The notes: a model not told the origin generated them from the letters alone. A stretch of DNA of 64,000 nucleotides from a virus (IMGVR_UViG_3300021088_000005:36811-100810); one strand, 5' to 3'; positions 32,520 through 46,063 are shown, numbered from the stretch's first letter. Program-made: numbers and translations.

Positions 32520-32832
32520 TTTCGTTTTCCTCAGGTGGATCGACAAACTCACAGCATCCACGCTCGATGTTTTCAATGCATAATCCTATATAATCGTGCT
32601 TAACTTCCGGGTCGCTTATGACAACAGGTTGATTACAGCGGCCTTTGCCGTTAGCGTCCTTAAACTTGGTTCCGTCCGGGTTCTTCTTCAAGAATGTGCA
32701 GTCTTCACAATGATACGGTCCGCTCTCTGCGTATCCGGAAAGCTTTGTGCTATTAGGCCACATCGGTCCTACTTCGCGTAGGAGCCTCTTAAGCGCCGCT
32801 ATCTTCTTTAGCCAACTCTTGGTCTCCGCCAT
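32512..32832 (-). CDS. Cys-rich small protein (possible metal or Fe-S binding)
   Basis: CEDCTF...GRC...GCCEF. Confidence 0.55.
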   Translation of the reverse strand: MAETKSWLKKIAALKRLLREVGPMWPNSTKLSGYAESGPYHCEDCTFLKKNPDGTKFKDANGKGRCNQPVVISDPEVKHDYIGLCIENIERGCCEFVDPPEENENG

Positions 32833-33001
32833 TTACTTATCCTTACGCATAGCCCGAGCCATGTGATATGAAATCTTGTCCCATCCTGCTGGAGGCTTGG
32901 GCGGCATTGGTTTGTCAGGCGCAGGGGTGTGATCTACGGTCTTGACAATATCGGTGCTCTCACCCGGCTTGACATTTAGTCCTGCAAAATCATTTGGCAT
33001 A

Positions 33002-33217
33002 TTACTTCCTGGCGTCTCGGGCTAACCCGTAGTCGCTCGTAACCTGTTCTGACTTCTGGCGATTTTCCATGCGTGCGGTTTCGTTAGCTGTGCCTTCGTA
33101 ATCCTTGTCCACATTGGCTGAGCCAGCAATATACGACTTGGCTTCTTCATGACCTAGACCAGCCGCCTGCTTGCCCCGCTCTAAAGTCAGCGCTGCCTTA
33201 TCTTGTTCAGTTGCCAT
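33002..33217 (-). CDS. Hypothetical protein
   Basis: Translationally coupled ORF. Confidence 0.55.
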   Translation of the reverse strand: MATEQDKAALTLERGKQAAGLGHEEAKSYIAGSANVDKDYEGTANETARMENRQKSEQVTSDYGLARDARK

Positions 33218-33402
33218 TAGGATTCCTTTCTAGCTTTTCTGGCGTGAGCGTATGTCGGAAGACCTTTGCGCGGAGTTGACGCGAAATCATGCAACTGCTT
33301 ATGCGACATCTCAAGCAAACCCTTATTCTCTGCGTGCAGTTTCTCCGGTTCGTGCTCGGCTATTGCCATGGCAATTTGCTGCTTCTTACTGACTGCTGGC
33401 AT
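33217..33402 (-). CDS. Hypothetical protein
   Basis: MPAVSKKQQIAMAIA...LHDFAST...GLP. Confidence 0.65.
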   Translation of the reverse strand: MPAVSKKQQIAMAIAEHEPEKLHAENKGLLEMSHKQLHDFASTPRKGLPTYAHARKARKES

Positions 33403-33411
33403 AACTACCCC

Positions 33412-33654
33412 TCAAAACTTCCAATGCAACCATTGGCCCAAATCGTGATGAACAAACGCACCCGCAGTCACGACAAGAGAGTGAATCCACTGGCGTGTTT
33501 CGGTCTTGTCCTGCTCTTCTTCTACAGCGCTTACGCGAGCCTCCATACTACCCTTGAAGCCAGAAAACTCTTGATGTAAATCACCAATTGCTTTCAGCAT
33601 CTCTGCTCGTGCATCGCTAATCGACTGCATTACTGCCTGGGTGTCCCCGTTCAT
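33412..33654 (-). CDS. Coiled-coil protein with hydrophobic C-terminus (lysis-associated?)
   Basis: RVSAVEE coiled coil, then a hydrophobic tail. Confidence 0.4.
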   Translation of the reverse strand: MNGDTQAVMQSISDARAEMLKAIGDLHQEFSGFKGSMEARVSAVEEEQDKTETRQWIHSLVVTAGAFVHHDLGQWLHWKF

Positions 33655-33770
33655 ATGAGCCTTATCAAAATGTGTCGGAGGCTTTCACTTCGACTGCTGT
33701 GGCTTTCACACGGTTTTCTGGAGGAGGGCTGGAATCTAATGTGTCCAGCCCGTCACAATCCAGGAAATGC

Positions 33771-34415
33771 TTATTCTTGAACGATCTTGAACTCAGTCAA
33801 GCTCGCGGTGTTGGCTGCGTTCGATGTGCTGAAGGTAATACCTACAACAAAGCCGAACTCAGTTGCGTACAATCCTCCGCCCACCAAACCAGTTACCGGA
33901 GTTATAGCTACCGGAACCTGGGATGAACTTGATCCGCCACCTGCACCCTGAGCATAAGTCCATTCCTGGAATCCACTCAATGTTCCAGAAGTCGGATCAA
34001 AGTATAGATCGCCAGACATAGACCAACCCAATGGTACAGTGGTTACAACTGCACTCGATGCTGTACCGCCCAAGAAGGTGGCATAGCTCGGAGAGGCAAT
34101 TGTTCCGGTGTTGATCTGAACAGTTGCTGTAATAGTTGGCGTGCCTGTTGCAGTCGCTGATCCGGATGCGTACATGTAGAAACGACCACCCTGCAACTTA
34201 AATGCAACTGAGTCAAAAGACAACTGACCCAATGCGCTTGTTGACGACGGGGTTGCTCCTAGCTGTGCGCTAGAAATCGGAGTGTTAACTCCGCTTACGC
34301 CTGTGTTCCAAAGGCTCTGCGGTGGGTTGCTATTGAAATACTTAATGGTTGTGCCCGTTCCGCCTACGACGCTCGGAAACGCTGCGCTTACCAAATACTG
34401 TTCTACTGTTGCCAT
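33771..34415 (-). CDS. Beta-rich structural protein (214 aa)
   Basis: T/S/G-rich; SD GGGAG. Confidence 0.6.
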   Translation of the reverse strand: MATVEQYLVSAAFPSVVGGTGTTIKYFNSNPPQSLWNTGVSGVNTPISSAQLGATPSSTSALGQLSFDSVAFKLQGGRFYMYASGSATATGTPTITATVQINTGTIASPSYATFLGGTASSAVVTTVPLGWSMSGDLYFDPTSGTLSGFQEWTYAQGAGGGSSSSQVPVAITPVTGLVGGGLYATEFGFVVGITFSTSNAANTASLTEFKIVQE

Positions 34416-34507
34416 GTGTTTCTCCCTTTATGTACGGTCTGCCGATGCTACCTTTATTGGTACTTACACCAAGCATCCGCTTTAATAGGACTGCGTTAAG
34501 CGCAACC

Positions 34508-35347
34508 CTAAACTCTTTCTAAGCTAGTCCCGCATTCGTTACAGAACTTAGCTGATGATTTGCTTGTCTTACCGCAAGTCTCGCACTCAAGCACAGTCTT
34601 GACGGTCTTGGCGACCTTGACAGGTGCTCCGTTGGTCTTGCCGATAAGATGAAGAACTAGCGCTTCCGCTGGTTCTGTGTCGAATCCTGAAACTTCTGTG
34701 AATTTCTGATTGCTGATCGAGCCTGGGACTGTGATTCCGGCGTTGTTCACAGCACAGTCCAACTGAACATTGGACTGCTGCGAGTACTTATACATGTCCG
34801 TCGTGCTGTTGCTATAAGAACAGTTGACAGCACCGCTAGCGCTGGTGTTCGTAACCGGAGCACTAAGACCGCGTGTTATTACTGTACCACTGAGCGAATT
34901 GCTCGTACAATAGCGCGTACGGGGATAGTAATGAGGCCAACCGTAGCAACCACCAGGATAATAATGATAGTAATCGTGATGGACAACCACCTTTGGACTT
35001 TCATATATCTTCTCGCGTTTGAACTCAACACGAATGAGTCCGTCTTCCGCCTTAACCCCGCGATGTTCCTCGACCGCTTCAGTGCGCTCGATAAACTTGA
35101 ATCTATTTCCCTTGTCCAGGTTCTTTACGAATCTTTCTACTTCGATGCTTTGACCAGCCGGAATAATCAGCCAGCCTGTTGCAGCTTGCCCGTCGATGGA
35201 AATTTGCGCCTGCATGCGAACTGTGTCTAGGTTCTTCAACAGAACCGAGTACTCAGAGCCGAACGGTAGTTCTACTTGGTTCTTAGACTCACGTAGGACT
35301 TTACCTTCGACCATAATCGCAGCTACAAAATTACTCTTATGCACCAT
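34508..35347 (-). CDS. Hypothetical protein with C-terminal zinc ribbon
   Basis: LPFGSEYSVLLKN N-domain; CETCG...FCNECG. Confidence 0.75.
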   Translation of the reverse strand: MVHKSNFVAAIMVEGKVLRESKNQVELPFGSEYSVLLKNLDTVRMQAQISIDGQAATGWLIIPAGQSIEVERFVKNLDKGNRFKFIERTEAVEEHRGVKAEDGLIRVEFKREKIYESPKVVVHHDYYHYYPGGCYGWPHYYPRTRYCTSNSLSGTVITRGLSAPVTNTSASGAVNCSYSNSTTDMYKYSQQSNVQLDCAVNNAGITVPGSISNQKFTEVSGFDTEPAEALVLHLIGKTNGAPVKVAKTVKTVLECETCGKTSKSSAKFCNECGTSLERV

Positions 35348-36445: not shown

Positions 36446-37111
36446 TTAGATAGTTCCTCGACGCTTCATATCTAGTATCAAAGCGATTACTTGTTCTTTT
36501 GAAAGTCCTGGACCTGGGATTCCCTGTTCGCCTTCTGGACCCTGAGGACCTATCGGTCCTTGTGACCCCGACTCACCTTGAGGACCCTGCGGTCCTGCTT
36601 CTCCGCGCAGTCCTTGCTCGCCCTGCGGACCTTGTATGCTCAATCCTGTAGGGCCTTGTAACCCTTGAGGACCCTGCGGTCCTGCTTCGCCTTGAGGTCC
36701 TTGAGCGCCAACTGGTCCTTGAGGTCCTGGAATATCGGAAACTCCTGGCTCTCCCTGCGGACCTTGTAATCCTTGTTCTCCCTGCGGACCTTGATCGCCA
36801 TCGCGACCGTCTTTTCCGTCTACTCCGTCGCGACCGTCGCGACCTGCTGGTCCTGTGTCACCTTTTGGCCCTGGCACTGTGCTGTCTGAGCCGGTCGCTC
36901 CGGTTTCGCCCTTCTCGCCGCGTTCACCGCGAAGACCTTGCGGTCCAGGAATGTTAGAAACCCCCGGCTCACCTTGTAGACCTCGTGGACCTTCAAGACC
37001 TCTTCGAGAGTCTCTGTGTCTGTGCAGGTCATTTACTGCTGTTTCAAGTCTTGAGATTCGTTCGTCTAAAGTTAAATCCACAGTATCATCTCCAAATCCA
37101 TCCGCAGACAC
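36446..37111 (-). CDS. Collagen triple-helix repeat protein
   Basis: About 50 Gly-X-Y triplets (GPQGEQGLQ...) after a short coiled coil. Confidence 0.9.
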
Positions 37112-37190: not shown

Positions 37191-38948
37191 TTATGAGCCA
37201 CTTGCGACTCCGTTGTGATCCAGAATATAAACTACATTGCCGCTGTTAGGAACGACTACGTGAACGATGTCTAGCAATGACGGGTTTGTGAATGCATCAG
37301 CGAACAACTGAGCAATTGTTGCCCCGCTGGTTAGGCGTGTGAAATACTGGCCTAGTCTGACCCCATTCGACGGAGTGAAGGACGCAGCAATGGTGGCGGT
37401 AGCAGCATGAGTTTCTGCTGTCTGCGTGGTCTCGGCTACAACTATGGTTGTGGCCGTGCTTGAGATTACAAGAACACTCGATACATTGTTGCCGCTGCTA
37501 GTGAAACCAGTAACTGTTATGAAACGACCAGCAAGACCGTTGGACGCACCGTTCGTTATGGTTCCGGTATATGTGGCCTTGTTGACTCCGGAGATACGAA
37601 CAGTTGCCGCATGCGTTTCAGCCGCTTGGCCCACTATGAAGGTACCAACCAAGGTTGTTGCTGTTGACGCCGTGATAACAAAGCTTACGTTGTTGCCGGA
37701 TGTTGTAAATCCGGCTACTGTCGCAGTAAAACCTACAAATGCGTTAGAAGCACCGCCTGTGATCGTTCCGGTGTAGGTGGTAAGTGATACCCCGGCTATC
37801 TCGGCAGTCGCAGCGTGAGTTTCGTCAACCTGAGTGTTCGGGGTAACCGTGATGGTTGTCGCAGTTGATGCAGTAATAGTGAATGTGCCGTTATTTCCAC
37901 CGTTCACGAAACCAGCGATTACAACCTGCTTACCAGCAAATGCGTTAGAAGCACCACCAGTAAATGTTCCGGTGTAGACACCTGTTGAACCGACAACAGA
38001 TGTGATTGTGAATGACGAAATAGCAACAGAGGTTAGCGCGAAGTCGTCTACCGCGACAGAAGTTAGCGGAGATGTAAACAAAGAACTGGTTGAGACATTG
38101 TGAACTGTTCCGATATTGTCAACCGAAACCAGGATGTCTCCGCCCTCTCCTACAATCTGAAGCAGGTCTAGGTTCTGTGGGCCAACACCGTTAGGGGTAA
38201 CTTGAGGATACGCAGATGGTACGCTTAAGCCGGGCTGAGACGCAATTAGCGCCTGAGCCACTCCGCCAGCAGTTGTTGGGGTGGCTGCGGAAGCAGGGGC
38301 TGTGATGTTTGTAGCTGTCGCGATAGTAACCGCGCCGCTAGACGTGACCAATCCTGCGAGAGCACGGCCCTTCAGGGTGCCGCCTCCCAATGTGATGCTA
38401 GTGTTGGCAAGAATATTACCAACCATGTTAGAAGTACCAGCAAAGATTGAAGTGAAGGAACTTCCTACTAGCCAAACCACGTTTGCAGCCTTAGCGCCAT
38501 TCACAAGCAATACAGACGCACCACTCTCTAAAGTAAGTGTAGAGCCTGCCTTAAAAATAAAAACAGCATTAGGGTTTCCCTGCGCATCTAGGGTAATAGA
38601 TGTCGGGATGTCCATTGATGATCCAGCGGAGTAATTGCCGGGTAGGTATGTGCTAGCCGTCCCGCCATTTCCTAGAGTAGATAGGTTGGCTGAAGACGCA
38701 GACAAAGATGTGAAGGAAAGTGCGGAGAAAGCGTTATAAGCAGTGAGGCCGTCTGCAATAGCTTGCGCGGCGTTTGGGGTATCAACTGCGGCAGGAGGAA
38801 TAAAGATCATCCCGTCCAAAGTATATGTCGCGGTTGGTGACGACCCGACATTGCCACCTGTGATGATGCTAGAGCCTGAGTTAGTAATACCAGCGCCTGC
38901 TAGAATGACATAATTAGCGGCGGTCAACAACTGAGACTGAATAGACAT
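37191..38948 (-). CDS. DUF3494 ice-binding domain protein with C-terminal repeats
   Basis: TAANYVILAGAGITNSG...ITLDAQGNPNAVFIFKAGSTL...NVVWLVGSS...GRALA, then three YTGTxTxGASN...GF...GNN...ETHAAT modules; SD AGGAG before ATG 38948. Confidence 0.85.
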   Translation of the reverse strand: MSIQSQLLTAANYVILAGAGITNSGSSIITGGNVGSSPTATYTLDGMIFIPPAAVDTPNAAQAIADGLTAYNAFSALSFTSLSASSANLSTLGNGGTASTYLPGNYSAGSSMDIPTSITLDAQGNPNAVFIFKAGSTLTLESGASVLLVNGAKAANVVWLVGSSFTSIFAGTSNMVGNILANTSITLGGGTLKGRALAGLVTSSGAVTIATATNITAPASAATPTTAGGVAQALIASQPGLSVPSAYPQVTPNGVGPQNLDLLQIVGEGGDILVSVDNIGTVHNVSTSSLFTSPLTSVAVDDFALTSVAISSFTITSVVGSTGVYTGTFTGGASNAFAGKQVVIAGFVNGGNNGTFTITASTATTITVTPNTQVDETHAATAEIAGVSLTTYTGTITGGASNAFVGFTATVAGFTTSGNNVSFVITASTATTLVGTFIVGQAAETHAATVRISGVNKATYTGTITNGASNGLAGRFITVTGFTSSGNNVSSVLVISSTATTIVVAETTQTAETHAATATIAASFTPSNGVRLGQYFTRLTSGATIAQLFADAFTNPSLLDIVHVVVPNSGNVVYILDHNGVASGS

Positions 38949-38964
38949 GATGCTCCTGAAATAC

Positions 38965-38993
38965 AAAAGCCGCCCAATCTAGGCGGCTTCTTT
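38965..38993 (-). terminator. Terminator ending the RNA array (possibly bidirectional)
   Basis: AAGCCGCC/GGCGGCTT stem with T tracts on both strands. Confidence 0.7.
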
Positions 38994-39006: not shown

Positions 39007-39085
39007 TGGTCGGGAAGGTGGGATTCGGACCCACGTGCTTTCGCTTCCGAAGCGAACGAGATAAGCCAAACTCCTCTACTTCCCG
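39007..39085 (-). tRNA. tRNA-Pro(CGG)
   Basis: TTCGC-TTCGGAA-GCGAA; CCA encoded; T-loop TCCGAAT. Confidence 0.85.
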
Positions 39086-39091
39086 TAAAAT

Positions 39092-39165
39092 TGGTCGGGG
39101 AACTGAGAATCGGACTCAGACCCTACGCTCCCAAAGCGTATGTGCTGCCATAACACTTCTCCCCG
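39092..39165 (-). tRNA. tRNA-Pro(TGG)
   Basis: TACGC-TTTGGGA-GCGTA; A8/U14; T-loop TCCGATT. Confidence 0.85.
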
Positions 39166-39171
39166 ATAAAA

Positions 39172-39936
39172 CTAAAAGAACGAAATTGTTTCTGCTTTCT
39201 CTGGATTAGCCGCGATGAACTTATCGACTGTATTATCCTGTAAGTCATTCAAGAAATCTAGAACACGGTCCGCCGGAGTCACTATATCGTAAGTACCGGA
39301 ATGGAAATCACCGACTGCAATACCGATTAGCGCACGTTCCTTAGCGCTGTAGATTCCGCTTCCACTAGACCCAGGCGCGATAGTCACGTCCATGGGCATT
39401 GTGTGAATCCAAAACGGATACTGCTCAATTATCTCTAGCGGCATGGCTAGGAATGCGGAAGACATGAATCGACCGTAGAATACCTGCTTGCCTGTGCCGT
39501 ACGGGAACGAAACATCAAATATCGGGTCGCCGGACTTTAATCCGCGTTCGTCTTTGATTCGAACTTCCGGGACGCCAGCGCCGTTCCTGATTAGCATCAA
39601 AGCTACATCGTCTGTCAAACTAATCGCAATAGGCATCGCGTCATAGAACGGTCCGCCCTCGTTATCTGAGAAGCTGACCTTCATGCTCTGATTGACGACA
39701 TTCGTGTCCGGGTCTGCTACGCAATGGCGTGCTGTCAAGAAAACACCGTCACCTGTCGAAGTGTGGCCGATTTCTGTGCCGCTGCAATTGAACCTGCGCT
39801 CAGCGCCTACGAATATGGCTCCGGTTGCTGCCCGAGCATCAATCTCGAACGGGTGCCGTGGTGCTCCACTAATCGCTAAGCCTGAGCCTAGGGCGAGTAG
39901 AACGGCTAAAGAAATCACTGCTAGCAACTTCTTCAT
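39172..39936 (-). CDS. Secreted trypsin-like serine protease
   Basis: Signal peptide; CSG, FLTARHC, DDVAL, APGSSGSG triad motifs. Confidence 0.85.
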   Translation of the reverse strand: MKKLLAVISLAVLLALGSGLAISGAPRHPFEIDARAATGAIFVGAERRFNCSGTEIGHTSTGDGVFLTARHCVADPDTNVVNQSMKVSFSDNEGGPFYDAMPIAISLTDDVALMLIRNGAGVPEVRIKDERGLKSGDPIFDVSFPYGTGKQVFYGRFMSSAFLAMPLEIIEQYPFWIHTMPMDVTIAPGSSGSGIYSAKERALIGIAVGDFHSGTYDIVTPADRVLDFLNDLQDNTVDKFIAANPEKAETISFF

Positions 39937-39961
39937 AGACTACCAACTCATTCGCAATACT

Positions 39962-40018
39962 TGGCGGAGCACTTATGCGAATGCATGCCGTTCGCTTATT
40001 GGAGCGAGCCTCTGCTCG
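39962..40018 (-). ncRNA. CCA-terminated tRNA-like small RNA (about 57 nt)
   Basis: GAGCA/TGCTC stem, two inner hairpins, ends GCCA. Confidence 0.45.
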
Positions 40019-40029
40019 GCTTGTAAAAA

Positions 40030-40104
40030 TGGCTGCGAGACTAGGACTCGAACCTAGATGCGCGGCTTCAGAGACCGCTATCCTACCAATTAGATGATCT
40101 CGCA
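40030..40104 (-). tRNA. tRNA-Gln(CTG)
   Basis: GCGGT-CTCTGAA-GCCGC; U1-A72; CCA. Confidence 0.9.
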
Positions 40105-40112
40105 ATAAATTT

Positions 40113-40176
40113 TGGAGGGTAGCCATTTCGTTCCCGCTAGGGCGAAGGGGTCGTTATCACTAGGGCAGTACTACCC
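40113..40176 (-). ncRNA. CCA-terminated small RNA (64 nt)
   Basis: GGGTAG/CTACCC terminal stem plus TCCA; no cloverleaf. Confidence 0.45.
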
Positions 40177-40222
40177 TGCTGTTGTTCCCTAATTACCTGA
40201 CCAACGATTTCACAGATCGAAC

Positions 40223-40298
40223 TGGTTGCCTCGACACGACTCGAACGTGTATAGCGGGATTCAAAGTCCCGCGTCCTACCAAATTAGACGACAAGGCA
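40223..40298 (-). tRNA. tRNA-Gln(TTG)
   Basis: CGGGA-CTTTGAA-TCCCG; CCA. Confidence 0.9.
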
Positions 40299-40304
40299 AT
40301 AAAA

Positions 40305-40376
40305 TGGAGCGAACTACTTACGGATTCGAACCGTCATCCGGTTGGCCTTCCGGATTACACCCTAGTGCGTGTTCGC
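40305..40376 (-). ncRNA. Atypical tRNA-like RNA (8-nt anticodon loop, 5-nt bulge between T arm and acceptor stem)
   Basis: GCGAAC/GTTCGC-TCCA; ATCCGG-AAGGCCAA-CCGGAT; ACGG-TTCGAAT-CCGT-AAGTA. Confidence 0.6.
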
Positions 40377-40382
40377 ATAAAC

Positions 40383-40459
40383 TGGACCAGCAAGTCAGAC
40401 TCGAACTGACTAAGAACAAGGTTGCAGCTTGTCGCCTCGACCGCTTCGGCATTTGCTGG
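40383..40459 (-). tRNA. tRNA-Cys(GCA)
   Basis: ACAAG-CTGCAAC-CTTGT; U73; CCA. Confidence 0.88.
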
Positions 40460-40460
40460 T

Positions 40461-40494
40461 TGGTCGCGGAACCGCCGTGAAGCTAAGTCCCACG
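40461..40494 (-). ncRNA. 34-nt ACCA-terminated minihelix 1
   Basis: CGTGGGAC-TTAGCTTCACGGCG-GTTCCGCG-ACCA. Confidence 0.55.
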
Positions 40495-40496
40495 AT

Positions 40497-40530
40497 TGGT
40501 GCCCCGCCAGGATTGCTCCGAAGCTAGGGC
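40497..40530 (-). ncRNA. 34-nt ACCA-terminated minihelix 2
   Basis: GCCCT-AGCTTC-GGA-GCAA-TCC-TGGC-GGGGC-ACCA. Confidence 0.55.
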
Positions 40531-40535
40531 ATAAA

Positions 40536-40622
40536 TGGCGGATGATGAAGGAATCGAACCCTCTTCACCTTTCGGTGAGGACAGTTTTCAAGACTGCTGC
40601 CCCCCATGGAGCCCAATCATCC
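40536..40622 (-). tRNA. tRNA-Ser(TGA)
   Basis: GCAGT-CTTGAAA-ACTGT; long variable arm; G73; short D arm. Confidence 0.82.
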
Positions 40623-40629
40623 GTAAAAA

Positions 40630-41145
40630 TTAAGTATGAAACACTGTAATCGGCAACCAAGCAACATGGATATCTACTTCAGTCCCGTTGACTGGTGCGG
40701 AACAAGTTGCGCTAACTCCTAGTCCGAATAGAGAAGACTGAACCGTGCTCCACAAAGACAATGGGTTAATTCCCCATAGATCAGTCGAACTACCAAGAGT
40801 ATAAAACTGTGGCTCGTTAGTTAAAGTAACATGTTTTCCGGTTCCGATTGGGTTGCCGTTCAAAGACATGGCAACATACAACTGACCGCTTCCGCCACCT
40901 GGCGAAGCATAGTACGCCCAGAATCCACCTTCAAGACCTGTTACACTCTGCTGCTCAGCTAATGTAAATCCGTATCGCTGACCGAAGACTGCTACCCCTG
41001 TGTTCTGACTACCGCCACTGAACTCTTTGTTCTGAGCGTAATCGCCTGGGGGCGATCCTACGAGACCACCGATATTAGTCCAGAGTACTTCATTACCGTT
41101 TGCGTACTGTACCGAATAGCCTGCGTATGCGCTTTCACTTGCCAT
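40630..41145 (-). CDS. Beta-rich hypothetical protein inside the RNA array
   Basis: SD GGAGG; YTLGSSTDLWG motif. Confidence 0.65.
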   Translation of the reverse strand: MASESAYAGYSVQYANGNEVLWTNIGGLVGSPPGDYAQNKEFSGGSQNTGVAVFGQRYGFTLAEQQSVTGLEGGFWAYYASPGGGSGQLYVAMSLNGNPIGTGKHVTLTNEPQFYTLGSSTDLWGINPLSLWSTVQSSLFGLGVSATCSAPVNGTEVDIHVAWLPITVFHT

Positions 41146-41174
41146 CTAGCCTCCGGCAATGCTAGTTAAAAATT

Positions 41175-41256
41175 TGGCGGAGAACCCCTTGCTAAGACTC
41201 CATGTCGCGTTTCCGCTGCAAGGTCCGCTGAAGCGTGTACCTGTTTAAGGTTCCCC
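41175..41256 (-). ncRNA. CCA-terminated branched RNA (82 nt) with G3-U70
   Basis: GGGGAACC/GGTTCTCC-GCCA; inner GCG-GAAA-CGC hairpin. Confidence 0.5.
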
Positions 41257-41279
41257 GGTCTTTCGACGGTTCTAATGTT

Positions 41280-41365
41280 TGGCGGAGAAGGAGGGACTTG
41301 AACCCCCACATCCTTTCGGATGCGAGTTTAGCAAACTCGTGCGTCTACCATTTCGCCACTTCTCC
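41280..41365 (-). tRNA. tRNA-Ser(GCT)
   Basis: CGAGT-TTGCTAA-ACTCG; long variable arm; CCA. Confidence 0.92.
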
Positions 41366-41374
41366 GTATTCAAC

Positions 41375-41666
41375 TGGTGACCAATAGCCAGGGTTCTGTC
41401 CAGCGCTTTCACGCTTGAACTGTCATTCGTCTTCGCTTCCAACCCGACCTTCGTCACGCTCAACAAGCGCTCTGGTCCTATTTGGAATTGCACCTACAGA
41501 GAGTCACTTCGCTCGAATGACCTATATGACGGTTGTTAAGTTTCTAATCGACCGCTATATGGGTACGAAGCCTTACTAGTCCGGTTACCCGGCCCGCAAC
41601 TTCCACGGTGTAGTGTTGAGATGTGCCCTGAACTTCCTCGGTTTCCCGCGACAGTTTAGGTCACCA
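41375..41666 (-). ncRNA. rnpB: RNase P RNA (type A-like, no P18, divergent S-domain)
   Basis: CR-I GAGGAAGTTCAGGGCAC and CR-V ACAGAACCCTGGCTA form P4 with bulged U; P1 TGGTGACC/GGTCACCA; P2 ACTGTCG/TGACAGT; P3; P5 GCAC/GTGC; P6 CTCAACA/TGTTGAG; P7 CTACA/TGTAG; P15 TTCC/GGAA; CR-IV AGACGAAT; P19. Confidence 0.9.
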
Positions 41667-41675
41667 AACTAAAAC

Positions 41676-41752
41676 TGGACGACCTGACTGGACTCGAACC
41701 AGCAAACATTTGTTTAGGAAACAAAGCCCCGATCCTTTCGGGGAACAGGTCG
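41676..41752 (-). tRNA. tRNA-Arg(CCT)
   Basis: TTTGT-TTCCTAA-ACAAA; CCA. Confidence 0.85.
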
Positions 41753-41756
41753 AAAC

Positions 41757-41831
41757 TGGAAGGCCGTAACGGAATCCAACCGTTGTCTCCCCGTTAGAAG
41801 CGGGGCGCATTTTGCACTATACTAACAGCCC
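41757..41831 (-). tRNA. tRNA-Arg(TCT)
   Basis: CCCCG-CTTCTAA-CGGGG; C19-G56. Confidence 0.85.
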
Positions 41832-41837
41832 ATAAAT

Positions 41838-41912
41838 TGGCAGGGGAAGAGAGATTCGAACTCCCATAACTGGTTTTGGAGACCAGAGTCCTAGCCGTTG
41901 GACGACTCCCCT
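41838..41912 (-). tRNA. tRNA-Trp(CCA)
   Basis: CTGGT-CTCCAAA-ACCAG; G73. Confidence 0.92.
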
Positions 41913-41917
41913 ATAAA

Positions 41918-42035
41918 CCTTTCCGATGTCACTTTCTCAGATCGCAGGCGCGTGACTGGCCGTGTCACAGTCCTTTGGGCTCGCGTGATCTGCTACGTTA
42001 GGCGATCATCGGTGCTAGTTTTCAAGGCTAGCAGG
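41918..42035 (-). ncRNA. Unknown structured RNA between tRNAs
   Basis: GCTAG/CTAGC, CCGATG/CATCGG, CAGATC/GATCTG, GTGAC/GTCAC stems. Confidence 0.45.
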
Positions 42036-42039
42036 AACT

Positions 42040-42113
42040 TGGAGCGACTGACGTGACTCGGACACGTTTCTCTGGATTGGAAGTCCAGGGCACAACCTAT
42101 ATACCACAGTCGC
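42040..42113 (-). tRNA. tRNA-Gly(TCC)
   Basis: CTGGA-CTTCCAA-TCCAG; U73; T-loop TCCGAGT. Confidence 0.88.
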
Positions 42114-42119
42114 AAAACT

Positions 42120-42194
42120 TGGAGCGGCTGACGGGAAATCGAACCCGTACCTGAACCTTGGCAAGGTTCCGTACTACCACTATACTACAGCCGC
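42120..42194 (-). tRNA. tRNA-Gly(GCC)
   Basis: GAACC-TTGCCAA-GGTTC; 8-nt T-loop. Confidence 0.9.
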
Positions 42195-42195
42195 A

Positions 42196-42271
42196 TGGTC
42201 GCTGTGGCTGGATTCGAACCAGCTATACCCGCCTTATGAGAGCGGTGCTTTTCCGGTTAAGCTACACAGCG
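42196..42271 (-). tRNA. tRNA(CAT), elongator Met or Ile2
   Basis: CCGCT-CTCATAA-GGCGG; paired 1-72. Confidence 0.85.
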
Positions 42272-42277
42272 TAAAAT

Positions 42278-42350
42278 TGGTTGCAGGGGTAGGAGTCGAA
42301 CCTACGTAAGCAAGTTTATGAGGCTTGCCTGAATCCCATTCTCCTCTGCA
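42278..42350 (-). tRNA. tRNA(CAT), possibly initiator-like, reduced D arm
   Basis: CTCATAA loop; TGCAG/CTGCA-ACCA; D arm GAAT-GGG-ATTC. Confidence 0.7.
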
Positions 42351-42358
42351 CAGAAATT

Positions 42359-42442
42359 TGGTGCGCGATGAGGGATTTGAACCCCCACGAGTTTCCCCAA
42401 TAGTTTCTAAGACTATCGTGTCTGCCGTTCCACCAATCGCGC
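42359..42442 (-). tRNA. tRNA-Leu(TAG)
   Basis: ATAGT-CTTAGAA-ACTAT; long variable arm. Confidence 0.92.
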
Positions 42443-42448
42443 AAAACT

Positions 42449-42524
42449 TGGTAGGGATGGAGAGATTCAAACTCTCGTCACTTGGCTTGAAGGGCCAGTA
42501 TCATTATCGCTAGACCACATCCCC
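42449..42524 (-). tRNA. tRNA-Glu(TTC)
   Basis: TGGC-CCTTCAA-GCCA; C33; A19-U56. Confidence 0.8.
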
Positions 42525-42530
42525 AAAACT

Positions 42531-42604
42531 TGGTCGCGCTGCGGGGAATCGGACCCCGGTTACACGGATGAGAACCGTGTGGCTTGCCACTAACCGACAA
42601 CGCG
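42531..42604 (-). tRNA. tRNA-Glu(CTC)
   Basis: CACGG-TTCTCAT-CCGTG; T-loop TCCGATT. Confidence 0.85.
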
Positions 42605-42605
42605 A

Positions 42606-42680
42606 TGGCGGAGATACCGGGGATCGGACCCGGACTTTACCCGTGACAGGGGTACGTCGTTACCAACTGACCCTATCTCC
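42606..42680 (-). tRNA. tRNA-Asp(GTC)
   Basis: TACCC-CTGTCAC-GGGTA; G73; T-loop TCCGATC. Confidence 0.85.
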
Positions 42681-42681
42681 G

Positions 42682-42755
42682 TGGAGCACCATAAAGGAAT
42701 CTAACCTTTTCTTCCGCTTTACCAAAGCGGTGGACTAACAATATCCTAATAGTGC
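42682..42755 (-). tRNA. tRNA-Thr(GGT)
   Basis: CCGCT-TTGGTAA-AGCGG; U19-A56. Confidence 0.85.
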
Positions 42756-42760
42756 GAAAC

Positions 42761-42834
42761 TGGAGCAGCGTCTGAGAATCGGACTCAGGCCAGCGGTTTA
42801 CGAAACCGCGATCATACCACTAGACCAACGCTGC
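42761..42834 (-). tRNA. tRNA-Thr(CGT)
   Basis: GCGGT-TTCGTAA-ACCGC; T-loop TCCGATT. Confidence 0.87.
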
Positions 42835-42839
42835 AAAAC

Positions 42840-42914
42840 TGGAGCACAATCGAGGAATCCAACCTCGGCTTCCGAGGTACAAGCTCGGCGTCATAGGCGC
42901 TAGACCAATCGTGC
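42840..42914 (-). tRNA. tRNA-Thr(TGT)
   Basis: CCGAG-CTTGTAC-CTCGG; C19-G56. Confidence 0.85.
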
Positions 42915-42920
42915 TTACAA

Positions 42921-43009
42921 AGGCTGGGGCAGCAGGATTCGAACCTGCAATGTGCTTACGCACTGTCTGGGTAACGGCCAGATGCTGTACCGGATTGAGC
43001 CACACCCCA
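42921..43009 (-). tRNA. tRNA-Asn(GTT) with long variable arm
   Basis: TCTGG-CCGTTAC-CCAGA; GTGC-GTAA-GCAC variable hairpin; G73; ends CCT. Confidence 0.78.
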
Positions 43010-43489
43010 ATAAAGTCTATCTTCTTCCTCTGCGTGGCAGTTAGCGCAGAGTAAATCACACTTATCTAATTCTAATTCTAATTTTACTTTTTCCCAGGCT
43101 ACAGTTTCTGGGCGCGATATAGCAAATTCTTTTTCTCCAGGTTCTCTATGATGAAATTGTAGTGCTCTTACACACTTACAGTACCCGCACTTCATGCACT
43201 TCCTGCCGAGATATTCAACAGCTCTCTGCTTTATATCTCTACGCCAGTCCATGACTCTTTTACTTACCGCTTTTCTCTTACGGTTAGCGGACTGTTCTTT
43301 CTTTATATTTCTGCACTCATCACTACAATAACTTAATACTGTCCGAATTGCCTTACCGCAAATCTTACAAGACCCTTCTGGTTTCCTCTTAGGAAAACGA
43401 TTGATATTGTTGTTCGCAGAATTGGCACACGTCTTAGAACAATATTTAGGATTGTCTGTGAGTACACCACATCCGTTACATGGGTGCAT
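42956..43489 (-). CDS. HNH endonuclease with Zn-finger repeats, 3' end overlaps tRNA-Asn
   Basis: CMKCGY...ALQFHH...KCDLLCANCHAEE. Confidence 0.88.
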   Translation of the reverse strand: MHPCNGCGVLTDNPKYCSKTCANSANNNINRFPKRKPEGSCKICGKAIRTVLSYCSDECRNIKKEQSANRKRKAVSKRVMDWRRDIKQRAVEYLGRKCMKCGYCKCVRALQFHHREPGEKEFAISRPETVAWEKVKLELELDKCDLLCANCHAEEEDRLYWGVAQSGTASGRYPDSA

Positions 43490-43522
43490 TCTAGTCTCCT
43501 AGTTTTAACTTCTAAACAAAAA

Positions 43523-43598
43523 TGGAGACCCTGGAGAGATTCCAACTCCCGACGCCCACGTTCGAAGCGTGGCGCTCTGTGCGCTGAGCTACAGGGTC
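43523..43598 (-). tRNA. tRNA-Arg(TCG)
   Basis: CCACG-CTTCGAA-CGTGG; C19-G56; A20. Confidence 0.87.
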
Positions 43599-43608
43599 AA
43601 ACTAATCA

Positions 43609-43764
43609 TCAGCGAGGAAACCTACGAATCAACTCCAACTGATGTGTTTCATCTTGGTACCAAACATGAGTGTCCATGTACTTCTTAGAATACCAAAGCA
43701 TAATAGGTAACGGGACCAACCAATAAATCCAAGGTCTCCATGACCAATATATTTTACTCTTCAT
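43609..43764 (-). CDS. Small Trp-rich membrane peptide
   Basis: MKSKIYWSWRPWIYWLVPLPIMLWY; ATG 3 nt after a tRNA CCA, no SD. Confidence 0.4.
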   Translation of the reverse strand: MKSKIYWSWRPWIYWLVPLPIMLWYSKKYMDTHVWYQDETHQLELIRRFPR

Positions 43765-43767
43765 ATC

Positions 43768-43843
43768 TGGTGATCCTATGTGGACTCGAACCACAGCATC
43801 GAGCTTCGCAGGCTCGCACTCTTTCCATCTGAGTTATAGGACC
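43768..43843 (-). tRNA. tRNA-Arg(GCG)
   Basis: CGAGC-CTGCGAA-GCTCG; A20. Confidence 0.88.
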
Positions 43844-43912
43844 ATAAACTTTTAGGGTTACGATCCCTCAACGGCTGCTTATTTCCGGTCTACAGCAAGA
43901 CGATCATTAAAC

Positions 43913-43987
43913 TGGTACGCCGCCGAGGAGTTGAACCTCGCTCTTCCGGGTGTAAACCGGGTGCATCTGCCGATCTGCCAGCAGCGT
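43913..43987 (-). tRNA. tRNA-Val(TAC)
   Basis: CCGG-TTTACAC-CCGG; A73. Confidence 0.85.
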
Positions 43988-43988
43988 A

Positions 43989-44052
43989 TGGTGGAGTCGG
44001 TGTGCCACGGTATCCCGGAAGGTTCTACCTTCTGTAGGTCTTGCCGTGCTCC
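43989..44052 (-). ncRNA. CCA-terminated small RNA (64 nt)
   Basis: GGAG/CTCC-ACCA, CACGG/CCGTG, GAAGGT/ACCTTC. Confidence 0.45.
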
Positions 44053-44138
44053 ATAATGTCCGGCGCGGATTGCATGTTGCTCCGCGTCGTCCGATGTGTC
44101 AGATAGTTCGTTGTATACTATCTCACACATCGTAAAAT

Positions 44139-44212
44139 TGGTGTAGGCGAAGGGAATCGAACCCTCAAATTCTCGGTGCAAGCGAGACAGTTTCCCGTTA
44201 GCTTACGCCCAC
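44139..44212 (-). tRNA. tRNA-Ala(TGC)
   Basis: TCTCG-CTTGCAC-CGAGA; G3-U70; A73. Confidence 0.9.
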
Positions 44213-44219
44213 ATAAAAT

Positions 44220-44293
44220 TGGTAGTCGGCCAGTGACTCGAACACTGATCTCACGTTAATCGGACGCGGGTCCTACCTTTGAACGAGCCGACT
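44220..44293 (-). tRNA. tRNA-Ile(GAT)
   Basis: CGCGT-CCGATTA-ACGTG; unusual C33 and U37. Confidence 0.78.
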
Positions 44294-44411
44294 ATAAACT
44301 TTACCGCTACACTTCTTCATATGAAACCAAAGAGCATCAGCCGGATTTATCTTGGCTGTTATCTCTTGCCCACATTTACTGCATCGAAGTACGCGTAGCT
44401 TTGACATAAAC

Positions 44412-44500
44412 TGGTGGAGAAGGAGTGAATCGAACACTCTACGTCTCAAGGACGGTTGGTTTTACAGACCAATGCGACTCTCCAACTTCGCCGCTTCTCC
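44412..44500 (-). tRNA. tRNA-Tyr(GTA)
   Basis: TTGGT-CTGTAAA-ACCAA; long variable arm. Confidence 0.9.
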
Positions 44501-44506
44501 AAAACT

Positions 44507-44582
44507 TGGTGGGACATGACGGGCTCGAACCGTCAACCGACTCCTTAAAAGGGAGCTATGTTGCCACTAACACCTATGTCCC
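44507..44582 (-). tRNA. tRNA-Lys(TTT)
   Basis: GCTCC-CTTTTAA-GGAGT; A8/U14. Confidence 0.88.
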
Positions 44583-44588
44583 GAAACT

Positions 44589-44663
44589 TGGTGCGCCTCC
44601 CGTGAATTAAACACGGTCCCGACGGGTTAAGAGCCCGCTGTGCTATCGTAACACCTGAAGCGC
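44589..44663 (-). tRNA. tRNA-Lys(CTT)
   Basis: GCGGG-CTCTTAA-CCCGT; A8/U14; A19-U56. Confidence 0.85.
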
Positions 44664-44673
44664 AAAACTTAAT

Positions 44674-44770
44674 AACCTGTGGAGGAATCGAACCTCTACT
44701 GACATTAGCGCGTAGACGTTATCGGTCAGCAAGCACCCGAGGTATCTACGTACCCGCCGTGCTCACGGTC
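44674..44770 (-). ncRNA. tRNA-shaped RNA with kissing loops, no CCA
   Basis: T arm GAGG-TTCGATT-CCTC; loops CGTAGA and TCTACG complementary. Confidence 0.55.
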
Positions 44771-44771
44771 T

Positions 44772-44858
44772 TGGTGCGCTGCCCCGGATTTGAACCGGGA
44801 CGGGGTTTAGTCCAGCGGGTTTTAAGTCCGCTATGTCTGCCTGTTCCATCAGCAGCGC
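44772..44858 (-). tRNA. tRNA-Leu(TAA)
   Basis: GCGG-ACTTAAAAC-CCGC; long variable arm. Confidence 0.9.
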
Positions 44859-44867
44859 AAAATCATA

Positions 44868-44936
44868 GATGGCGTCCTATCCGTTAGACGATACACGCCG
44901 ATAGCATGCACCGGGACTCGAACCCGGATTTCCACC
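44868..44936 (-). ncRNA. Circularly permuted, anticodon-less tRNA (YrlA Y-RNA-like)
   Basis: Order: GGTGG, AAAT, T arm, TGCATGC, TATCG loop, GCGTGTA, D arm, CCATC. Confidence 0.8.
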
Positions 44937-44941
44937 TTACT

Positions 44942-45035
44942 TGGTAGTCTCGAAGAGATTCGAACTCTTATCGCGCCCCAATCTAGGGCTTATCCAGTTT
45001 ATAAGGCTGGCGCTCTGCCGTTGAGCTACGAGACT
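44942..45035 (-). tRNA. tRNA-Ile(TAT) with long variable arm
   Basis: CCAG-CCTTATAAA-CTGG; GCCCT-AGATT-GGGGC variable hairpin; A73. Confidence 0.82.
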
Positions 45036-45041
45036 AAAATC

Positions 45042-45136
45042 TTGAACCTTCCCGAGCTTTACTAGCGTGACACTCGGTCTTGATTAACAAGTCGTGCCTT
45101 CCACGCTAGCGGTTGCACGATCAATGAACGGTTCAA
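45042..45136 (-). ncRNA. Unknown multi-stem RNA with 8-bp kissing loops
   Basis: TTGAACC/GGTTCAA; TCGTGC/GCACGA; CCGAG/CTCGG; loops CTAGCGTG/CACGCTAG. Confidence 0.6.
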
Positions 45137-45142
45137 ACTTGA

Positions 45143-45229
45143 TTCGGGACCCGGCATCAACCTTCCCAGGAAGTGCCACGTCGGTTAGAAGCTTGACACT
45201 TACTACCAACGTCGTCAAGGTTTCCCGAA
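45143..45229 (-). ncRNA. Unknown pseudoknotted RNA
   Basis: TTCGGGA/TCCCGAA; CTTGAC/GTCAAG; ACGTTGGT/ACCGACGT; GGCA/TGCC; CTTCC/GGAAG. Confidence 0.55.
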
Positions 45230-45232
45230 AAC

Positions 45233-45317
45233 TGGTGCGACAGAGGGGAGTTGAACCCCTATGAGACAAGCTCGGCGGTTTTTGAGACCGCTGCGTATGC
45301 CATTCCGCCACTATCGC
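45233..45317 (-). tRNA. tRNA-Leu(CAA)
   Basis: GCGGT-CTCAAAA-ACCGC; long variable arm. Confidence 0.92.
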
Positions 45318-45385
45318 ATAATCTTTAGGGCTCTTAGCCCAAGGTAAGACTTCATCCATGTAGGAGAAGCTTTCTTACCTAAACT

Positions 45386-45460
45386 TGGTCCGGACTCACG
45401 GAATTGAACCGCGTACGCCCACCTCTTCAGGGTGGCGCTCTACCGATGAGCTAAGCCCGG
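45386..45460 (-). tRNA. tRNA-Phe(GAA)
   Basis: CCACC-CTGAAGA-GGTGG. Confidence 0.9.
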
Positions 45461-45468
45461 ATAAAATA

Positions 45469-45639
45469 GTATTCATCGTGACAAACGTCTTAAGCCGGAT
45501 GCCTTCGTCACAACGGGTGACCAGCCATATAGAGTTCACGCCCCACCGGGGAATGACTCTAGTCTAAGCAAACTCACCAGATTGGCCTGCGCAAGCCTTA
45601 GCATCTCTCCGGCAAGAAGCAAGTCTCGATTACAAATAC
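45469..45639 (-). ncRNA. 6S RNA-like rod (about 170 nt)
   Basis: End-to-end hairpin ATCG/CGAT, GAC/GTC, TCTT/AAGA, GCCGGA/TCCGGC, central bubble, GGTGA/TCACC, TAGAGT/ACTCTA, CCCC/GGGG. Confidence 0.5.
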
Positions 45640-45668
45640 ATTGTACCACAACTTTCGAATCTTGTCAA
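45640..45668 (-). promoter_or_regulatory. Sigma70-type promoter for the RNA array
   Basis: TTGACA-17 nt-TACAAT with extended TG. Confidence 0.85.
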
Positions 45669-45987
45669 GCGATTTCTTCGACCATCTCAAGAAATATTTC
45701 CATCGCTTCGATCATTCTGCTGCGCCCAAACTCGTCAGCCAGGACATAAACCTCAGCGTCGGACATCTTGCTTGTTATGACTACGCCGTCTTCCAGGGAT
45801 GTCCACACCATCGGTTCCTCCACCCGCCTGGGGGTTGGACCCGGCGGACAGAATCTAATCCAGTGGCGGAGAAAGGATCGTAACCGCTACGCCGGACGCT
45901 CTTATGAGCACACTGGAAACTTTGGGTGGCTGATTGCGCTCTGACAGCCGAAGTTTCAGCGTATGTTTCAGCGTATGTTTCTAATTT

Positions 45988-46063
45988 TGGGGTGTCCCGC
46001 CGGAATCGGACCGAGCGCTACAGGATTCACAGTCCCGTGTGCTTCCATTACACCACGGACACC
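45988..46063 (-). tRNA. tRNA-His(GTG)
   Basis: CGGGA-CTGTGAA-TCCTG; G-1:C73; T-loop TCCGATT. Confidence 0.85.

Follow-up and report, generated by a model that had tools for sequence, protein, structure and literature searches.

Predicted tRNAs with compensated elbow changes at positions 55 and 19-56 in an uncultured phage and its relatives

Textbooks count as "invariant" both position 55 of tRNA, a uridine matured to pseudouridine, and the pair G19-C56. We examined both in a 64,000-nucleotide stretch of viral DNA (IMGVR_UViG_3300021088_000005:36811-100810, hereafter the window), which makes up the right-hand end of a record of 100,810 bases for an uncultured virus from soil metagenomes and carries an array of 35 tRNA genes on its minus strand (39007..46062; 32 found by ARAGORN and three added by Infernal). 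The dinucleotide U55-C56 is absent from 13 of these 35 tRNAs (37%): compared with canonical elongator tRNAs, which have G18-pseudouridine 55, G19-C56 and T54-A58, seven carry C55 and a further six have the 19-56 pair reversed or replaced. As judged from sequence, these are predicted phage tRNAs whose elbow is rewritten, not broken. Such rewriting is unusually common in the phage clade to which the window belongs, and a literature search found no description of compensated elbow rewriting across a phage clade. The reading that fits best, at a probability of roughly 0.42, is a fold-preserving, nearly neutral turnover where base identity at 55 and 56 is weakly constrained; we rank it ahead of escape from a T-loop nuclease, which comes second.

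Results

Seven tRNAs of the array, Pro(CGG), Pro(TGG), Gly(TCC), Glu(CTC), Asp, Thr(CGT) and His, had been described in an earlier note on this DNA as carrying TCCGA in place of TTCGA, and ARAGORN and Rfam both confirm this. In the ARAGORN cloverleafs and Rfam matches, each has a 7-nucleotide (nt) T-loop of the form TCCGANN within an unambiguous 5-bp T stem, and the plus strand reads G at all seven position-55 sites. The genes, all on the minus strand, are tRNA-Pro(CGG) (39007..39085; T-loop TCCGAAT, C55 at 39028), tRNA-Pro(TGG) (39092..39165; TCCGATT, C55 at 39113, with A8 at 39158 and U14 at 39152), tRNA-Gly(TCC) (42040..42113; TCCGAGT, C55 at 42061), tRNA-Glu(CTC) (42531..42604; TCCGATT, C55 at 42552), tRNA-Asp(GTC) (42606..42680; TCCGATC, C55 at 42627, with G8/G14), tRNA-Thr(CGT) (42761..42834; TCCGATT, C55 at 42782) and tRNA-His(GTG) (45988..46062; TCCGATT, C55 at 46009). 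Against an environmental-phage baseline of 1%, a binomial estimate for seven C55 tRNAs in 35 is ~1e-7. Position 55 is never G in the window tRNAs.

Apart from these positions the molecules look ordinary. D-loop GG, U54, A58, G53-C61 and encoded CCA are kept in all seven C55 tRNAs, whose folds have a 7-bp acceptor stem and a 5-bp T stem and whose Rfam RF00005 scores (41.4-55 bits against a cut-off of 29) resemble those of their neighbours. The weakest is tRNA-His, at 41 bits, with a single mismatch at the T stem's top or at the acceptor stem's base. Across the array, U54, A58 and G53-C61 are present in 34 of the 34 tRNAs that have a 7-nt T-loop, and CCA is encoded in nearly all of the 35 genes. 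Canonical bacterial and phage elongator tRNAs (RF00005) therefore share with the rewritten ones the cloverleaf, the 7-nt T-loop, U54, A58, G53-C61, CCA and a D-loop partner. Spread of C55 by duplication of one T arm was considered and rejected, as only Pro(TGG) and Thr(CGT) have identical T arms and the other five differ.

The six tRNAs with a swapped 19-56 pair lie on the same strand. C19-G56 is found in tRNA-Arg(TCT) (41757..41831; D-loop GC, T-loop TTGGATT), tRNA-Thr(TGT) (42840..42914) and tRNA-Arg(TCG) (43523..43598), and U19-A56 in tRNA-Thr(GGT) (42682..42755; T-loop TTAGATT). A19-U56 is found in tRNA-Glu(TTC) (42449..42524; T-loop TTTGAAT, with C33) and in tRNA-Lys(CTT) (44589..44663; T-loop TTTAATT, with A8/U14), both recovered by Infernal only. 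As the earlier note had stated, the C55 set and the swap set do not overlap; this holds across all 35 tRNAs of the window.

To place the window among its relatives we used an alignment of its terminase, which matched many metagenomic contigs of ~100 kb and led to 80 IMG/VR loci. The clade considered below comprises the window genome and nine related records with tRNA arrays, at terminase identities of 35-76%; gene order in the four nearest genomes is largely that of the window. The ten clade genomes (~100 kb) yielded 275 tRNAs, which were placed on standard numbering, and 27% of these are without U55-C56. Position 55 is C in 32 and G in seven, and position 56 is other than C in 35. Each alternative comes with its own D-loop partner, almost without exception (72 of 73 rewritten tRNAs): GC accompanies G56 in 15 of 15 cases, GA accompanies U56 in 13 of 13 and GU accompanies A56 in seven of seven, while GG is found with C55 in 32 of 32 and AG with G55 in six of seven. 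Changes at 55 and at 56 were never observed in the same tRNA, where ~5 such cases were expected (P 0.003). The surrounding T-arm positions are stable (non-U54 1.8%, non-A58 1.1%, non-G53/C61 3.6%, position 57 always a purine). Changes are thus confined to the two inter-loop contacts, which are kept. The tabulation of positions 8, 14 and 54-56 over relatives that the earlier note had proposed gives the same picture, with 55 and 56 changing far more often than 53, 54, 58 or 61.

The loss of the UUC T-loop sequence is repeated and independent, as had been claimed: of 39 anticodon families, 21 show variation at 55 and 20 show it at 56, with different sets in different genomes. A comparison of 109 orthologue pairs from the four nearest genomes shows a difference at position 55 in 20% of pairs and at position 56 in 28%, none at positions 54 and 58, and differences at stem positions in 50-68%. 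By our own estimate, the differences at 55 and 56 are close to those of independent draws at the observed frequencies. Turnover at these two positions is fast relative to genome divergence and slower than at free positions, since 20-28% of pairs differ there against 50-68% in stems. For instance, three of the four nearest genomes have UA, UG and CC, respectively, at positions 55-56 of Thr(GGT). The orthologue of Thr(CGT) in relative G001 has acceptor and T stems identical to those of the window, yet a D-loop GU and a T-loop TTAGATT where the window has GG and TCCGATT. The C55 of Pro(CGG), Gly(TCC), Asp and Thr(CGT) is common to relative G003 and is therefore probably inherited; Pro(CGG) also has C55 in G001 and Gly(TCC) in G002, and tRNA-Asp is the same in G003 down to its G8/G14. 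The C55 of Glu(CTC), Pro(TGG) and His is not shared within the nearest group: the G001 orthologue of Glu(CTC) has U19-A56 instead, and the G002 orthologue of Pro(TGG) keeps A8/U14 but has U55.

The burden of rewriting is uneven. It ranges from 3 of 33 to 17 of 32 tRNAs per clade genome (chi-square P 0.001), and tRNAs for Leu, Ser and Tyr are rarely affected (4 of 52, against 70 of 223 others; P 2e-4), which indicates that function limits where change can go.

As an environmental baseline we took 616 other tRNAs in 75 loci fetched by a canonical T-arm word. C55 is found in 1.0% of them, G55 in 2.4% and non-C56 in 1.6%, and any departure from UC in 5.0%; the departing tRNAs are clustered in a few loci, one of which has 9 of 22. 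Relative to this baseline the clade is enriched 13-fold for C55 (P 5e-12) and 9-fold for non-C56 (P 4e-11), both as odds ratios, with no enrichment at non-U54 or non-A58. None of 92 tRNAs in three cultured, tRNA-rich phages departs from UC, these being Streptomyces phage Wakanda, Aeromonas phage AhP_Mru1 and Microbacterium phage A3Wally. Relatives of the phage, further IMG/VR loci and small genomes of the Candidate Phyla Radiation (CPR) type all yielded examples of the A18-G55 combination. Exact-word scans of IMG/VR or GTDB show presence and not frequency, and 14-mers also match at random; the baseline above was used in their place.

The same alternative states, with the same covariation, occur in cellular tRNAs that must work. 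One exact 17-base C55 T arm lies in otherwise textbook tRNAs in 100 of 120 GTDB stretches among the matches listed (loci L212-L331), so that at least 100 species of bacteria and archaea have C55 in a normal tRNA. It recurs by lineage: in the elongator tRNA-Met(CAT) of many Candidatus Enterousia, in several tRNAs of CPR bacteria, in tRNA-Arg(TCG/ACG) of Desulfobulbaceae, in tRNA-Arg of Chthonomonadaceae and in tRNA-Thr and tRNA-Arg, including Arg(CCT), of Thermoplasmata. Across these GTDB loci, whole lineages of cells have C55 as the fixed state of certain essential tRNAs. We also examined four small genomes of 0.5-0.9 Mb, two of them named as CPR and two taken as CPR-like from their size and tRNA likeness. 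Rewritten elbows make up 4 of 43, 5 of 36, 5 of 36 and 6 of 39 of their tRNAs (9-15%), in the form of C55, A18-G55 and 19-56 swaps; U8, A14 and U33 are almost invariant there, unlike in the phage tRNAs. The cellular cases also differ in density, with one such tRNA per 8-kb stretch or 9-15% of the set; the share is 37% in the window and reaches 53% in one of the related phages.

Loss of the pseudouridine synthase TruB was considered as a cause of the cellular variants and set aside. A TruB_N match was found in 13 of 20 genomes holding a C55 tRNA, the seven without a match being small CPR-like genomes. A TruB-positive Saccharibacteria chromosome accounts for the 4 of 43 above and genomes without a match for the 5 of 36, 5 of 36 and 6 of 39. 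There is no clear link between TruB presence and rewritten elbows, with the caveat that metagenome-assembled genomes are incomplete.

Positions 8 and 14 tell a different story from 55 and 56. The earlier note had reported A8 with U14, in place of U8-A14, in Pro(TGG), Lys(TTT) and Lys(CTT), and the absence of U8 from Cys, Asp and Tyr; all are present in the window (Cys has A8, Asp G8/G14 and Tyr C8), and tRNA-Lys(TTT) (44507..44582, minus strand; A8 at 44575, U14 at 44569) combines the swap with a canonical U55-C56. The swap does not, however, serve as a sign of special pressure, since deviation at positions 8 and 14 is no commoner than is usual for phage tRNAs: non-U8 is at 13.1% in the clade and 11.9% in the environmental baseline, and non-A14 at 14.9% and 13.3%. 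The A8/U14 combination is mildly enriched (4.0% against 1.5%, P 0.03). It is a separate, ordinary feature of phage tRNAs. The D stem reads GUGU in all three window tRNAs with A8/U14 and in most of those examined in the clade (Pro TGG, Lys and Trp; loci L082, L084, L086, L087 and L089), which suggests a structural coupling or a shared origin with anticodon change. Position 33 is likewise at its baseline (non-U33 6.5% in the clade, 6.3% outside). C33 replaces U33, within clean 7-nt anticodon loops, in Asn (42922-43009), Ile(GAT) (44220-44293) and Glu(TTC); several relatives likewise have C33 in their orthologues of Asn, Ile(GAT), Val(TAC) and Thr(TGT), and it is present in 18 of the 275 tRNAs altogether.

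Inside the array, at 41370..41667 on the minus strand, lies a compact RNase P RNA of bacterial type A (72.7 bits, E 4.5e-21). In the alignment P18 is absent and the S-domain stretch spans 75 nt against 105 model positions. A type-A RNase P RNA of ~300-350 nt is present in ten of ten clade genomes; it stands between tRNA-Ser(GCT) and tRNA-Arg(CCT) in the window genome and relatives G001-G004 and was matched in five further relatives. Copies were located at 2640-2947 of locus L081, 4762-5068 of L083, 7600-7918 of L084 and about 1440-1840 of L082, in the last of which P3 holds a large insertion. Four unrelated large viral records (G010, G024, G026 and G042) also gave matches to type-A RNase P RNA, at 142-277 bits.

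Exact contigs in three RNA libraries overlap the array in places, at a depth of 2-5; the RNase P RNA and three C55 tRNAs are among the covered genes. Depth on stretches of open reading frame (ORF) is similar, and DNA carry-over is possible, so transcription is not thereby shown.

Discussion

We propose that the fold of these tRNAs is under strong selection in this phage-host system, and that the identity of bases 55 and 56 may be under weak selection. G18 would pair with C55 in the seven tRNAs of the window and A18 with G55 in relatives, and a 19-56 pair written as C-G, U-A or A-U would retain its contact. From their chemistry, C55 would be unable to become pseudouridine, and the U55-C56 that T-loop enzymes read would be gone. 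Fold-preserving alternatives could then arise, spread and revert at a high rate, leaving a different mosaic in each genome. The variants, their covariation, their enrichment across the clade, their turnover and their occurrence in essential cellular tRNAs are observations; their near-neutrality, and whatever makes the constraint weak here, are inferred. Weak constraint is favoured because it accounts for the mosaic and its turnover, for the restriction to states that preserve the contacts, and for the parallels in cells. Partial coverage supports it further: 13 of 35 tRNAs are rewritten, 22 are canonical and 12 amino acids are served by canonical tRNAs only.

The clade separates what the tRNA fold needs, namely contacts, from what cellular enzymes need, namely base identities. 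A quarter to half of apparently working tRNAs with compensated replacements amount to a natural mutagenesis experiment. Near-neutral variants of this kind would also mark phage-host systems in which elbow-reading enzymes matter little, providing a handle on host biology for uncultured phages.

Several observations weigh against weak constraint. U55-C56 is strict in most phages, with no departures among the 92 tRNAs of cultured phages and 95% of the 616 environmental tRNAs retaining it, and the weak constraint must therefore be special to the clade or its host. The enrichment is specific to 55 and 19-56, with positions 8, 14, 33, 54 and 58 at baseline, which means that the tRNAs are not under a general relaxation. 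Differences in load between genomes imply that the selection regime differs between lineages. The mutual exclusion of changes at 55 and 56 would equally fit a process in which one hit is enough. Finally, a yeast suppressor tRNA tolerated no single mutation of G18-U55 or G19-C56, a result that is confounded by the eukaryotic B-box promoter (PMC4117946).

A possible, though less probable, explanation is that the rewrites were selected because they take away U55-C56, on which a T-loop (U-turn) nuclease of the host would depend; a Schlafen/Cash-type effector or a tRNase like CdiA-CT(E479) would be of this sort. Rewritten phage tRNAs would then survive cleavage of host tRNAs. Evasion of anticodon nucleases by phage tRNAs offers a precedent that we count in its favour: T5 tRNA-Lys reportedly escapes PARIS, T5 tRNA-Tyr is said to escape PtuAB, and mycobacteriophage tRNAs are reported to behave likewise. 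Those tRNAs (against PARIS AriB and retron-Eco7 PtuAB in the case of T5), like the ones described here, differ from host-type tRNAs at a site that a nuclease can read. The known cases concern the anticodon loop of one or a few species, with resistance shown experimentally; here it is the T-loop/D-loop elbow, across most class I families and in part of the set, as known from sequence alone.

A nuclease with the appropriate specificity exists. CbCash, a Schlafen nuclease of type III CRISPR (clustered regularly interspaced short palindromic repeats) systems activated by cyclic tetraadenylate (cA4), is a Chloroflexi protein studied in E. coli and published in 2026; it cuts many tRNAs immediately 5' of U55 with a preference for a UC motif after the cut, and single mutations of U54 or U55 abolish cleavage (PMC13462974). 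CdiA-CT(E479) cleaves the same bond, between T and pseudouridine of the T-loop (PMC9086364). The cut site and required bases of CbCash coincide with the dinucleotide lost from the rewritten tRNAs. Every state that we observed breaks UC and keeps the fold, no tRNA is changed at both 55 and 56 (P 0.003), enrichment is limited to these positions and this clade (odds ratios of 13 and 9; 0 of 92 in cultured phages), and the rewritten load differs strongly between genomes, all of which would be expected under escape. C55, G55 and 19-56-swapped elbows might then be natural nuclease-resistant designs and the footprint of an arms race that pits soil phages against nucleases of this type, with phage lineages at different stages of replacement, although we regard this as doubtful.

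Other features fit escape poorly. A broad nuclease would require the whole set to be resistant, but 22 of the 35 tRNAs are canonical; a narrow one predicts that the same tRNAs are changed in relatives, but the sets differ. The same variants are found in essential cellular tRNAs, where a benefit against the cell's own suicide nuclease is not obvious. The nuclease on the host side is a candidate only, and no tRNA repair or modification genes were seen among the large ORFs of the phage genome. CbCash itself is a possible antagonist and not a relative of the rewritten tRNAs, and nothing links it to the host of this phage. The text consulted does not say whether U55C in particular, as opposed to other substitutions, or a change of C56 blocks cleavage, and the authors treat phage tRNAs as targets as an open question (PMC13462974). 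The earlier note had named a T-loop-specific nuclease or modifier as the selective pressure. The repeated loss of the motif stands, and CbCash makes such an enzyme concrete; as to the pressure itself, the limited extent of rewriting, the differing sets and the variants shared with cellular tRNAs would fit weak constraint at least equally well. Natural C55 and 19-56-swapped tRNAs with orthologues in other states constitute defined substrates on which the question of a T-loop nuclease can be put.

The RNase P RNA raises an alternative that we consider improbable, namely that a compact phage RNase P RNA no longer needs the canonical elbow, or reads it differently, and has thereby freed positions 55 and 56. 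The elbow formed by T-loop and D-loop is where the S-domain of RNase P docks. The RNA is present in each of the ten clade genomes, and the window copy has a reduced S-domain and is missing P18. In the T. maritima RNase P-tRNA structure, however, docking on the elbow reportedly proceeds by stacking and backbone contacts that leave bases 55 and 56 unread, in which case host RNase P should not enforce U55-C56 in the first place. A type-A RNase P RNA is absent from seven of nine near-complete other viral records with a C55 tRNA, and jumbo-phage records that do have one show few C55 tRNAs. Other C55 viral records are thus mostly without the RNA, and because many of them are fragments, a dependence on it is weakened without being removed.

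Two remaining explanations are very unlikely. Deamination of a genomic C55 to U would yield canonical mature tRNAs, and the sole precedent is C8-to-U8 editing by CDAT8, said to occur in tRNAs of Methanopyrus kandleri; nothing in the window supports editing. The ORFs scanned included no deaminase, and in two RNA libraries contigs show the genomic letter at position 55 of Glu(CTC) and Asp (at low depth and with DNA carry-over possible). Editing would also leave unexplained G55 with A18 and the 19-56 swaps, for which the compensation is already present in the DNA. Decay of the C55 genes into dying pseudogenes has in its favour the weak score and stem-junction mismatch of tRNA-His, but it is hard to reconcile with neighbour-like scores of 41-55 bits, intact stems, 7-nt loops, core bases, D-loop GG and CCA, or with C55 kept in orthologues from genomes whose stems have diverged by 50-60% through compensated changes; we rejected pseudogene status, there being no broken stems, lost core bases or low scores, and conservation across genomes.

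Other features of the genome

The rest of the genome is that of a tailed phage, with terminase, portal and capsid genes. Replication and metabolism genes elsewhere in it include a Prim-Pol, a family A polymerase, a UvrD-type helicase, ThyX, a ligase and a nicotinamide adenine dinucleotide (NAD)-salvage pair. The pair consists of a nicotinamide phosphoribosyltransferase gene adjoining a phosphoribosyl-pyrophosphate-synthetase-like gene, just left of the window (12723-15280 of locus L333, equal to genome positions 32723-35280), and is presumably of the type that phages use against NAD-depleting defences. No cultured relatives were found by megablast or by blastn against a phage collection.

A trypsin-like protease gene and an HNH endonuclease gene are interspersed among the tRNAs of the array; the protease, used as a query, returned no related loci. 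The 5' half of tRNA-Asn overlaps the 3' end of the HNH endonuclease ORF (42956-43489), and this tRNA, at 88 nt, has a long extra arm, an unusual feature in a tRNA-Asn. Immediately upstream of the array lie a 591-amino-acid protein with an ice-binding-like domain (PF11999; window 37191-38966) and a collagen-repeat tail-fibre protein (36446-37111). A further ARAGORN call, a 102-nt tRNA-Arg(TCT) at window 12450-12551, falls inside a structural ORF of 1118 amino acids, is without Rfam support and is probably false.

Avoidance of restriction sites was tried as a reason for the U55-to-C change, which destroys TCGA, and rejected: over the whole genome TCGA occurs 1.08 times as often as expected and there are 36 copies of TTCGAA, and the array itself retains 41 TCGA sites. 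As a separate observation, the genome shows very strong restriction-site avoidance. Across its 100.8 kb (G000, made up of the window with loci L332 and L333), 19 of the 64 six-base palindromes are absent where 8-35 copies of each are expected, among them CGATCG, CCCGGG, CTGCAG, GGATCC and GTCGAC; only five of 4032 non-palindromic hexamers are absent, and GGCC occurs at 0.57 of expectation.

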